DNA of 63,655 nucleotides, the filler included, from Atractiella rhizophila (lineage: Eukaryota), in the NCBI GenBank assembly GCA_021432655.1. It is 39 parts of 39 records of this genome, joined end to end, with 100 filler letters (N's around TTAATTAATTAA, not from the genome) between each part and the next. Parts side by side here need not be neighbours in the genome. Positions count along the whole stretch, not along the records: positions 1,692 to 3,282 come from MU272920.1; 38 more parts are not named here. One strand, 5' to 3'. A program made the position numbers and the translations under genes. This document shows, one piece after another, positions 1,692-28,336 of this stretch; positions within the stretch are counted from its first letter, which is position 1, and each line of letters begins with the position of its first letter. A model generated the notes under the pieces. The model was not told the origin of the DNA. It did not search any database and was given only the letters and a program-made list of their open reading frames with translations.

Positions 1692-3005
1692 GACAGAAGT
1701 CTCGACGACATCATCACGAGCAAGAAGAAAACCACTCGGGGACGCATCTACCGTGGTGGAGGACTCCCTCGTCGAGGTTCTGGTCGAAAAGTCTCTGCCC
1801 CTTACGACCGCAACGTTCGTGCCGTCCCTAGTCCCGTGCTCGCCAAAAGGGCCCAGGCTCCTGCCTCTGGTGGCGCTCCTTTGCCTGGAGGGAGTAAAAT
1901 CATTGTCAGTGGCTTCCCACAGGATGTTCTCCGCGAGCAGATCCTCGTACGTGACTTCCTTATCCGTTTTATGAAGTGGCAAGTTTATTGGTTGGTGGCG
2001 AAGGAATTGTTTCGAGAGACCGTTGGACCCGTGGTATCCCTCATTTTGAGCTTTGACGACAAAGGAAGGTCGAGGGGTATCGCCGAAGTCGAATTTAAGT
2101 CTTCCGAGACTGCCCAGAAGGCGTACCAACAGTTTAACGGAAGATTGATTGATAACAGTTAGTATACCATTCTCATCCTTAGGTTTCCCTCCTATCCCCA
2201 TTTGCATCGTCACACACGTCACCGGACGCGGTCTGGCCTTGTCGCTGGCTACCTTGATTGAAGGGAATAGCAAGAGCAAGGTGCATCTCAGTTGGGCTAC
2301 GCGCCGCACTTGAAACAGAAGAGTCGAGAAGACCTGACGTAGTCCAGGCTGCGCAGCCTTCTAGACGATTCCTTGCTCTGCGAGGAGTCTCAGGGTTCGG
2401 ACGTTCAAGCCGTTCAAGTTCGTGGCCGTAGCCCAACTCTCCATGACCACAGTCCTGCACCTGTGCGATCTTGTTCTGCTTCTCCTAGTCTATTCTTCTA
2501 TCTCCTTGGCCACTCTCGACGTCGAACCCGTTTCTGACCAATCCTATGCCTTCATCTTTGCCGTGCCCTCGATTCGCTCCGTACACTTGCTCGTCATGTC
2601 ACACAATCCTCGGATCGGTTTCAACCTTTTTGTCTACTCTACTCAACTACGCCAACGATGGACAACAGAATTCAAGATGAAGGTGGAGATGGTTGTGGAT
2701 CCCTCCAAAGTCCCACCCAAACCCCTCTCGACACGCTTAAATCCAGCACCCGCCGTCACTGCGCCAACGGCCGTGAGGTGAATTACTCGCTTTCAGGATC
2801 GTGGGCCTAACTGACACCTTGACTGTCGTGGAACAGACCGACTGGAGTGGTGGGACCAAGGGGCAGGGGATTCAGGGGGAGAGGAGGGAGGATTGGGAGG
2901 GGTGGAAGGGGAGGCGGAAGGAGAGATGGACCACCACCCACTAAGGATCAGCTCGACGTTGAGATGGATGATTGGACTGCGCAAGCACAGACTGAAGCGA
3001 AATAA
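1692..3005 (+). CDS. YRA1: mRNA export adaptor Yra1/ALYREF (REF family RRM protein), start codon just off the contig; introns 1947-2003, 2158-2668, 2778-2836
   Basis: N-box DRSLDDII, RRM (KIIVSGFPQDV...GRSRGIAEVEF...AYQQFNGRLIDNKFKMKVEMV), RGG tract and C-box TKDQLDVEMDDW, with the stop at 3003-3005. Confidence 0.9.
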
Positions 3006-3396
3006 GGCTAGAGTGGATTGGTATGTTAGTTCCTTTCGGATTTAGAATCTGTCTAACACTAGGTTGCTTAACTTTAGTTAACCGTGGTCCTATGCTTTTC
3101 TTCCCCTCCTGCCTGTCGCGGTGTGATATATGTTGTTATATTTGTCGGTTATGTTCTCTAAAATACAACTGGGTGCCAAAGGACAGCCATGGTGCCGTGG
3201 TTTCAATGCATATTGCTGCTCATGCACGTGCTCTAGGGATGATGAGTACTGATAGCGAATGTTTCCATGGCCATCAAAGAACNNNNNNNNNNNNNNNNNN
3301 NNNNNNNNNNNNNNNNNNNNNNNNNNTTAATTAATTAANNNNNNNNNNNNNNNNNNNNNNNNNNNNNNNNNNNNNNNNNNNNACCGTTCATTCCAG

Positions 3397-27265: not shown

Positions 27266-27541
27266 TGGCCTCAGGTTGAGCTGGAAGGTCCTTCATGCTC
27301 TGTTAAGTGTGCCTCTCCACCTCGTAGTGCGGGCAAGCTGGACGGTGCACTCCAAGGTCACAAGTCACGCCTCCGAGTGTCCTCCTTCCTCCTCTGGAGG
27401 ACAGCAATGCACCACCTCCACCTGAAGGGTTGCCCATAGGACGAACCCTTAAGCCCTTCATTCGAGCTGAGTAAGATTAAGGCTCACCCGAAGGGCAGGC
27501 GTGTTGCATCCTTCTTGTTCGCGACAGGAACAAGTAGGCCA
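27266..27541 (-). ncRNA. Candidate structured non-coding RNA (~276 nt) in the inferred long intron of the kinase gene
   Basis: TATATAA about 24 nt upstream, complementary ends TGGCCT/AGGCCA, at least five internal helices including a C(UUCG)G loop, CTGA next to the 3' stem, and a T7 tract 11 nt downstream. Family not identified. Confidence 0.45.
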
Positions 27542-28336
27542 CAGAAACATGCCTCCCATTATATATTGTCATCCAGTCCACAACCGAACTTTTCCCACAA
27601 ACAACAGTCCACATCAAGCGGGTTATAGTAAGTAAATCATAAACGAATACGCTCAATGATAAATGACAGAGAAAGTGATGAATGAAGTTTGGAAGTTTCA
27701 CAGAATAACGAGAAGCAGTGGTAACTTGCTGTTCATCTCGCGCTGGAGCATTTTAGCAATCAAAAGGGATGCGCCACATTGCGTAGACGGTGGTTGGTGA
27801 GATAGATTCAGTTCTTCTGCTAAGCCCTCCATGTAGCAAGATGGCCCACTCTGCAACATTACGCATAGCGAAACAACCTGGAAATAACAAATACGGCGCT
27901 CTAATCAACAGCGTGAGGGATTTCACCGATCTGGGAACGCAATTGCTCCTACGCCGCTCAAGAGCAACACACAAGACAAGCTGACGGTTCACACAGCAAT
28001 GGTGAGGACTTATGAACCGCAACTTGGTCCTGTCAGCTCAGAACGGAGGAGAAATTGTATCCATTCCTCGATGAGGATGAGAGAGAAGTGATACACGAGA
28101 AGCTTGTAGCGTGTGTATGCGTAGAGAAAGATTCGGCCCCTATCTTTGCACTGCCTACACAATCGTTCTCTGGATGCGCTGACAGAGCGAAAAGAACACA
28201 TTGCAAGCTTCCNNNNNNNNNNNNNNNNNNNNNNNNNNNNNNNNNNNNNNNNNNNNTTAATTAATTAANNNNNNNNNNNNNNNNNNNNNNNNNNNNNNNN
28301 NNNNNNNNNNNNCTTCTAATGAACACCATTGTTTAG

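Follow-up and report, generated by a model that had tools for sequence, protein, structure and literature searches.

The third intron of the mRNA-export gene YRA1 of the root fungus Atractiella rhizophila is probably a basidiomycete version of the splicing brake by which baker's yeast keeps this protein in check, because it is long, is partly left unspliced, has a folded middle and is found at the same spot in relatives. In the reading that we prefer, to which we give about an even chance, the intron would be an autoregulatory element that works through regulated retention and nonsense-mediated decay (NMD), with its fold setting the ratio of the two forms and with Yra1 itself supplying the feedback. 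A previous reading of the DNA sequence (hereafter the original prediction) had interpreted the intron as a regulated one carrying a long nested stem-loop. That interpretation is partly supported; it fits because of the identity of the gene, the folded core, its single copy, the selective retention and the conserved position of the intron.

The gene and its two alleles

The window, i.e., the whole stretch of 63,655 nt that was analysed, is a chain of contigs of ~1.5 kb with ~40 N linkers that have a TTAATTAATTAA core (e.g., 1592–1691), and contigs adjoining in it are not genomic neighbours. The 1591-nt contig at 1692–3282 (G000:C1741) carries a YRA1 copy that is cut by the contig start. Compared with the corresponding part of the contig G000:C311 (L002), which is the other allele and holds the whole gene, with the ATG and intron 1 at L002 961–1025, it has 8 differences in 1591 positions. 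On the plus strand of the window there follow exon 2 (1692–1946), which is cut by the contig start and encodes the N-terminal box, the basic region and the start of the RRM; intron 2 (1947–2003, 57 nt, joint present in 4/4 RNA runs); exon 3 (2004–2157), with most of the RRM; the long, partly retained intron 3 (2158–2668, 511 nt); exon 4 (2669–2777), from the last RRM strand onward; intron 4 (2778–2836, 59 nt, joint present in 3/4 runs); and the coding part of exon 5 (2837–3005), with the RGG region, the C-terminal box and the stop.

The spliced frame encodes 232 aa, and the protein has the N-terminal box, the single RRM, the RGG region and the C-terminal box of the YRA1/ALYREF (REF) family. 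Since ALYREF/REF2 structures are the top matches of a profile built from 37 relatives (E 2e-32), the gene is assigned to YRA1/ALYREF. Its sole close protein match is a 141-aa model of Atractiella rhizophila. Pfam RRM_1 is matched on residues 104–155 of 155 (profile 16–66 of 70), in agreement with the original prediction that the intron interrupts the end of the RRM. Two observations on the other introns are also noted. Intron 2 keeps the frame open without a stop, has AAG at its end and contains no YTRAY; its retention would insert 19 aa within the RRM, and a low-depth contig of run X19 covers it. In the 3' UTR, 15 nt past the stop, there is a 57-nt intron at 3021–3077, for which two runs show a second form of the junction.

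Splicing of the intron and its retention in transcripts

The RNA evidence consists of assembled contigs from 4 runs examined out of 24 listed. The joint 2158–2668 (GTTAGT...CAG) is present in 4/4 runs, so that the predicted 511-nt intron is a real one; what appears as a '513'-nt joint is the identical junction, where an A>G allele lies two bases inside exon 4. Because the remaining four introns of the gene have only 57–62 nt, intron 3 is ~9 times longer, close to the factor of about 10 that had been predicted.

Contigs covering the intron occur in 3/4 runs (X19, X3 and X20, with none in X1). In X19 a single contig crosses the whole intron at depth 108, the two junction alleles have depths 637 and 370, and the contigs over the small introns have depths 12–44, where contig depths are only a hint. 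X3 is an RNA library and the type of the X19 library is not on record, and the depth 0 beyond the 3' end in X19 argues against a DNA origin of the intron contig. The retained-intron contigs continue into one or both flanking exons, and two RNA contigs of low depth end near L002 1904–1907 and are not counted as evidence. Most transcripts appear spliced at intron 3 in the four runs, and unspliced RNA is detectable, as in the inefficiently spliced intron of the S. cerevisiae type, both as far as contig depths can hint. Between the two RNA-seq signals that the original prediction had named, retention is thus the one found, while joints of cryptic exons, i.e., joints that begin or end inside intron 3, are absent from the 4 runs.

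The 5' splice site GTTAGT (2158–2163, plus strand) has U at +3 and contains an in-frame TAG at 2160–2162, with which retention reads Ser-stop and gives a 141-aa product that lacks the last RRM strand and the C-terminal box. The public Atractiella rhizophila model ends at this retention stop. An in-frame alternative 3' splice site at 2488 and a poison exon in the intron were considered and rejected, neither having a supporting joint in the 4 runs. It is noted that the 180 nt after the TAG at 2488 (2489–2668) are open in frame with exon 4, so that splicing to the site at 2488 would add 60 aa.

The putative branch point is a distant CTGAC at 2534–2538 (plus strand), whose A, at 2537, lies 131 nt upstream of the 3' end. 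Around it extends an AG exclusion zone of 178 nt (2489–2666, plus strand), which is the longest of the 8210 AG-to-AG gaps when the two strands of the window are taken together; a gap of this length is reached by 0.7% of mononucleotide shuffles and by 0/3000 dinucleotide shuffles. In the small introns with a match, the branch point is 16–26 nt from the end. Judging from this arrangement, the branch at 2537 is probably the one used for intron 3. The statement of the original prediction that there is no canonical branch site close to the 3' end is correct to the letter but misleads in view of this CTGAC, and the non-canonical branch point supposed by analogy with S. cerevisiae has to be given up, since a canonical CTGAC lies in the AG-free zone. 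Instead of a non-canonical branch point, it appears to be the distant canonical one, together with the +3U 5' splice site, that makes splicing of the intron weak.

Predicted fold of the intron

The expectation that the intron folds better than shuffled sequence holds for its core and not for its whole length: the fold of the whole intron has z −1.13, with 13/100 shuffles as good, while the core 2265–2480 has z −5.63 (0/200 shuffles; reverse strand z −1.44) and a longer piece, 2215–2542, has z −4.32. The core was selected post hoc, and it escapes a fixed grid of 75 nt (minimum z −2.1). Among control windows elsewhere in the window, 0/148 tested (of 375 available) fall below z −4; the lowest control fold, at 27424–27573 on the minus strand, has z −3.92.

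All of the complementary arms named in the original prediction are present at the coordinates given there, and the main nested ones are predicted to pair in a core stem of 12 + 5 + 7 bp (2290–2438, plus strand, z −5.3 to −7.5), with pair probabilities of 0.99 for 2290–2301/2427–2438, 1.0 for 2303–2307/2422–2426 and 0.88 for 2308–2314/2413–2419. The predicted stem closes a multi-branch loop with hairpins at 2323–2366 and 2367–2389, the latter formed by 10 bp (2367–2376/2380–2389, pair probability 1.0). The supposed inner domain, with CCTGA/TCAGG around a palindromic hairpin, is less favourable by 3.9 kcal/mol than the predicted alternative and is replaced by it. The pairing AGGTGCA/TGCACCT is the minimum-energy register for the isolated 216-nt piece but has p <0.15 in the whole-intron ensemble, where the register 2273–2282/2468–2477 (p 0.92) is preferred.

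Below the core a basal rod of several short helices (p 0.4–0.96) is predicted, with its 5' strand at 2218–2286 and its 3' strand at 2463–2538 (both plus), and its last helix pairs the TGAC of the branch point (p 0.77). The only internal GTRNG of the intron (GTGCGA, 2463–2468, plus strand), a candidate proximal 5' splice site, lies in a predicted basal helix; no joint from it occurs in the 4 runs, and the candidate sites do not stand out when internal 5' sites are scored by U1 match.

Since perfect inverted repeats of at least 12 bp within 400 nt occur 3 times in 59.9 kb, such a repeat alone is not rare. The core element has two genome matches, both alleles of YRA1, even at E 10, in a search where very common words were skipped by the tool; a multi-copy MITE, which the original prediction had named as the result that would speak against it, is thereby rejected. 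Rfam yields no match in intron 3 at E 5 nor, at E 1, in the paralogue and 11 orthologous loci, and box C/D- and H/ACA-like words, inspected by eye for a snoRNA-like layout, gave nothing coherent. Among alleles and strains, three intron sites vary, namely 2168, 2330 and an insertion near 2491. The 24-bp main stem is free of variants, with low power at three variable sites, and the changes at 2330, found in two strains, each disrupt an inner pair of the predicted fold.

The intron in other Basidiomycota

A metagenome scan found 177 relatives, from which 80 loci were kept. An intron starts at the same position in 57/80 loci, the other 23 being spliced transcripts or having no match to the search patterns. 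Five of these 57 introns are short, and the 52 others comprise 35 complete ones and 17 without a called 3' end. All 35 complete long introns have 451–1023 nt, with a YTRAY 34–132 nt from the end and within an AG-free zone in 35/35, and together with the Atractiella intron they make up 19 sequence groups. GTTAGT starts 43/57 introns at this position and also opens a 59-nt intron in L081. In five loci that are Malassezia-like by protein similarity, the intron has only 26–32 nt and begins with GTACGT or GTGAGT, and the long intron is therefore dispensable in that lineage.

In the transcript contigs L008, L017 and L022, as judged against same-species genomic contigs (L008 vs L074/L075/L081, L017 vs L071 and L022 vs L049), the small introns are out and the long intron is kept; the long intron is selectively retained in orthologue transcripts. 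In L009, also a transcript contig, splicing starts at an internal GC 5' site ~115 nt ahead of the 3' end (compared with L022:1094–1208); this site is invariant in its group, and its use keeps ~620 nt of the intron in the mRNA. Among public YRA1 models of basidiomycetes, many break off at 120–160 aa, a few residues past the RLID motif, their shortness being due to the reading of the long intron as exon. In seven other basidiomycete genera, models stop just past this point, and full and truncated models coexist in the Lentinula, Rhodotorula and Puccinia clusters; the truncated ones may be prediction errors. The Atractiella genome itself has a second YRA1-like gene, with a 657-nt intron (L083:1246–1902, G000:C599) at the same position, which starts with GTGCGT, has its branch point 27 nt from the end and folds weakly (z +1.55 as a whole, −2.53 at best). 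The database model of this paralogue, P0092, reads through parts of the intron.

Covariation was assessed in 11/35 introns that were chosen for a shared anchor and are mushroom-forming-like by protein similarity. In this set a long-range helix (hereafter the mushroom-type helix) links sites ~80–130 nt after the 5' end and ~140–215 nt before the 3' end. Across the 22 pairs of this helix, pairing holds in 84.6% of cells, against 40–47% in slid controls, and double changes occur in 8 of the pairs. Its paired fraction, double-change cells and covariation score are matched by 0/500 shuffles, its number of double-change pairs is reached by 29/500 and its pair types by 224/500. With 9 rows (L067 and L053 dropped and L079 shifted by hand), 172/198 cells pair and the arms are 71% identical vs 37% for the enclosed part. 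The helix begins just after a pyrimidine-rich CAG in 7/9 non-redundant rows and ends at a GTAAY/GTATG site in 8/9. Because the structure was derived from the same sequences and the shuffles ignore relatedness, this covariation is support and not proof. In two other alignable groups RNAalifold gives little covariation (1/121 and 10/199 pairs), so the covariation anticipated among orthologues is seen in the mushroom-type helix and hardly in these groups.

Folding of the orthologues is weak, with 4/145 windows below z −3 among 20 introns, and their domain scores range from z −5.25 to −0.17, the latter in L062. By blastn the Atractiella core has no match in the orthologous introns and the paralogue, and the k-mers enriched across 20 introns are those of the mushroom-type group and are absent from the Atractiella core. 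In local alignment to the 20 introns, the score is reached by 0/300 shuffles in L007, 1/300 in L044 and 1/300 in L062; these alignments are gappy, with ~50% identity, and are not shared by L017, L022 and L057. Hence the conservation expected among relatives is borne out for the position and layout of the long intron and not for the Atractiella stem, which has no detectable homologue in these introns or in the paralogue. Comparison of the loci indicates that the long-intron architecture, in its position and layout, is conserved across Basidiomycota, with a helix sequence that appears to be lineage-specific. As to recurrent words, a CTGATCA-type, branch-point-like word lies in an apical hairpin loop of L008, L011, L015, L040, L047, L069 and L079 and may be a decoy or a site for a protein; several introns of the mushroom type have CAGCC ahead of the real branch point; and GAATATC recurs in 6/20 introns.

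A model for the intron and its alternatives

In the model that we propose, the intron would be built to splice inefficiently, by its length, by the +3U 5' splice site and by a branch point 131 nt upstream of the 3' end, from which the 3' splice site would be reached by scanning the AG-free tract. Upon retention, the in-frame stop of the 5' splice site would give the 141-aa product, and the transcript would most likely be a substrate of NMD, as in Cryptococcus and Yarrowia. The folded middle (core 2290–2438, basal rod 2218–2538) would remove ~250–320 nt from the path that leads from the 5' splice site to the branch point, and with the branch point itself predicted to pair in the extended fold, folding may set the spliced-to-retained ratio. 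A high level of Yra1, which is an RNA-binding export factor, would then lead to retention and export of the pre-mRNA, giving negative feedback as in S. cerevisiae. Against such a regulated intron stand the orthologues, whose folding is not generally strong (4/145 windows below z −3), the lack of both a blastn match and the mushroom-type motifs in the Atractiella core, the Malassezia-like loci that manage with 26–32 nt, and the fact that long introns, for trivial reasons, are more often assembled and retained. More tentatively, and with considerable doubt, we put forward an independent basidiomycete YRA1 switch at another intron position, in which a long-range helix would conceal either a proximal 5' splice site or the branch point and would be remodelled by Yra1 or a helicase partner; the architecture would be phylum-wide, with the helix sequence replaced in each lineage and with the covarying mushroom form absent from Rfam.

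It is rather unlikely, in our view, that the stem is a constitutive zipper, which merely shortens the distance from the 5' splice site to the branch point while retention is a passive leak without control by Yra1. Zipper stems are common in long yeast introns (32/88, as given in the accessible part of PMC12350175), most Atractiella transcripts appear spliced, and the helix geometry fits both in Atractiella and in the covarying group; but such a zipper leaves unexplained why a long intron, with a stop in its 5' splice site and a branch point far from its 3' end, is kept at one position across Basidiomycota, and why both paralogues have a long intron there while 26–32 nt suffices elsewhere. An unlikely alternative form of regulation is that the basal helix hides the proximal 5' splice site and that its opening yields an unproductive isoform, like in DEAD/45ABC, perhaps with the 3' site hidden too, so that a poison exon is made. 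This would be in line with the pyrimidine-rich CAG (7/9) and GTAAY/GTATG (8/9) that flank the mushroom-type helix, with the splicing of L009 from a group-invariant internal GC site and with the presence of Atractiella's only internal GTRNG and of the TAG at 2488 in the 3' basal strand. However, no joint falls inside the Atractiella intron in the 4 runs, L009 is a single contig and the candidate sites are unremarkable in a simple U1-match score.

The opposite possibility, that regulation goes through length and splice signals and that the stem is a product of chance or a small inverted-repeat relic, we consider quite unlikely. While no homologue of the Atractiella stem was detected, a 12-bp inverted repeat is by itself nothing rare, the 12-bp arms have a direct repeat of 3 nt (CTC) on either side and the changes at 2330 in two strains break a predicted inner pair, the element has only the two allelic matches in the genome even at E 10, its strand asymmetry (z −5.6 vs −1.4) and G-U pairs favour pairing at the RNA level over a DNA palindrome, and the 24-bp main stem has no variant, with low power at three variable sites. 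Very improbable, finally, is an independent non-coding RNA, snoRNA-like, hosted in the intron with the stem as its fold. A compact folded domain of 150–220 nt in a long intron and intron contigs in RNA runs would suit it; against it, Rfam gives no match (E 5 for the intron, E 1 for the 11 orthologous loci and the paralogue), the sequence of the domain is not conserved and the retained contigs run into the flanking exon(s).

The dose of Yra1 must be tightly limited, and to our knowledge the block that yeast Yra1 exerts on its own splicing is still without an explanation at the level of an RNA element. The basidiomycete version, apparently independent and the second after that of yeast, would have defined parts, i.e., a 5' splice site that carries a stop, a branch point far from the 3' end and a long-range helix. 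Moreover, the mushroom-type helix with its compensatory changes is a candidate new Rfam family, and the long retained intron accounts for the many public basidiomycete YRA1 models that are truncated at 120–160 aa.

Comparison with known systems

In the literature searched, which was mostly open access, no structure or distant branch point is reported for the YRA1 intron of a basidiomycete; a screen for covariation among fungal RNAs omitted Basidiomycota, according to the accessible part of PMC8216456. Distant branch points with an AG exclusion zone are described, in what is available of PMC1431707, for human alternative exons, while here they would be found in a fungus whose ordinary branch points are 16–26 nt from the end. 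The plant DEAD and 45ABC elements, as their reports describe them in part, are alike in being a conserved pre-mRNA structure in the gene of an RNA-binding protein, where it controls an unproductive splice choice, and differ in kingdom and genes, with no alternative-site joint in the 4 Atractiella runs. The zipper-stem autoregulation of RPL7B, so far as its available description goes, is an analogue of the Atractiella intron. From the yeast zipper stems in general, as partly available in PMC12350175, the Atractiella core stem differs in that its linkers exceed 42–85 nt unless the weaker predicted basal rod forms.

Retention of a YRA1 intron is shared with Cryptococcus, which is a basidiomycete, and with Yarrowia, where the retained forms are degraded by NMD: by the available portions of these papers, retention in Cryptococcus neoformans YRA1 (CNG03240) rises in upf1 mutants (PMC5006051), and that in Yarrowia lipolytica YRA1 is likewise NMD-sensitive (PMC2911113), with no mention in these portions of an RNA structure, a branch-point distance or a feedback.

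With the S. cerevisiae YRA1 intron, the Atractiella intron has in common the gene family, one unusually long intron in the RRM (511 nt vs 57–62 nt for the others in Atractiella) and inefficient splicing. The two long introns are probably not the same intron, because their positions in the RRM appear to differ: nt 285 of yeast presumably falls early in the RRM, near the short intron 2 of Atractiella and not at the RRM end. In the accessible parts of the yeast studies, the YRA1 intron follows nt 285 and the pre-mRNA decays via Edc3 and escapes NMD (PMC2864733), and a conserved structure is predicted in the Saccharomycetaceae YRA1 intron (PMC4937481). Yeast YRA1 autoregulates via a long intron with a degenerate branch point, as stated in what is available of PMC2911113, whereas the putative branch point of Atractiella is canonical but distant.
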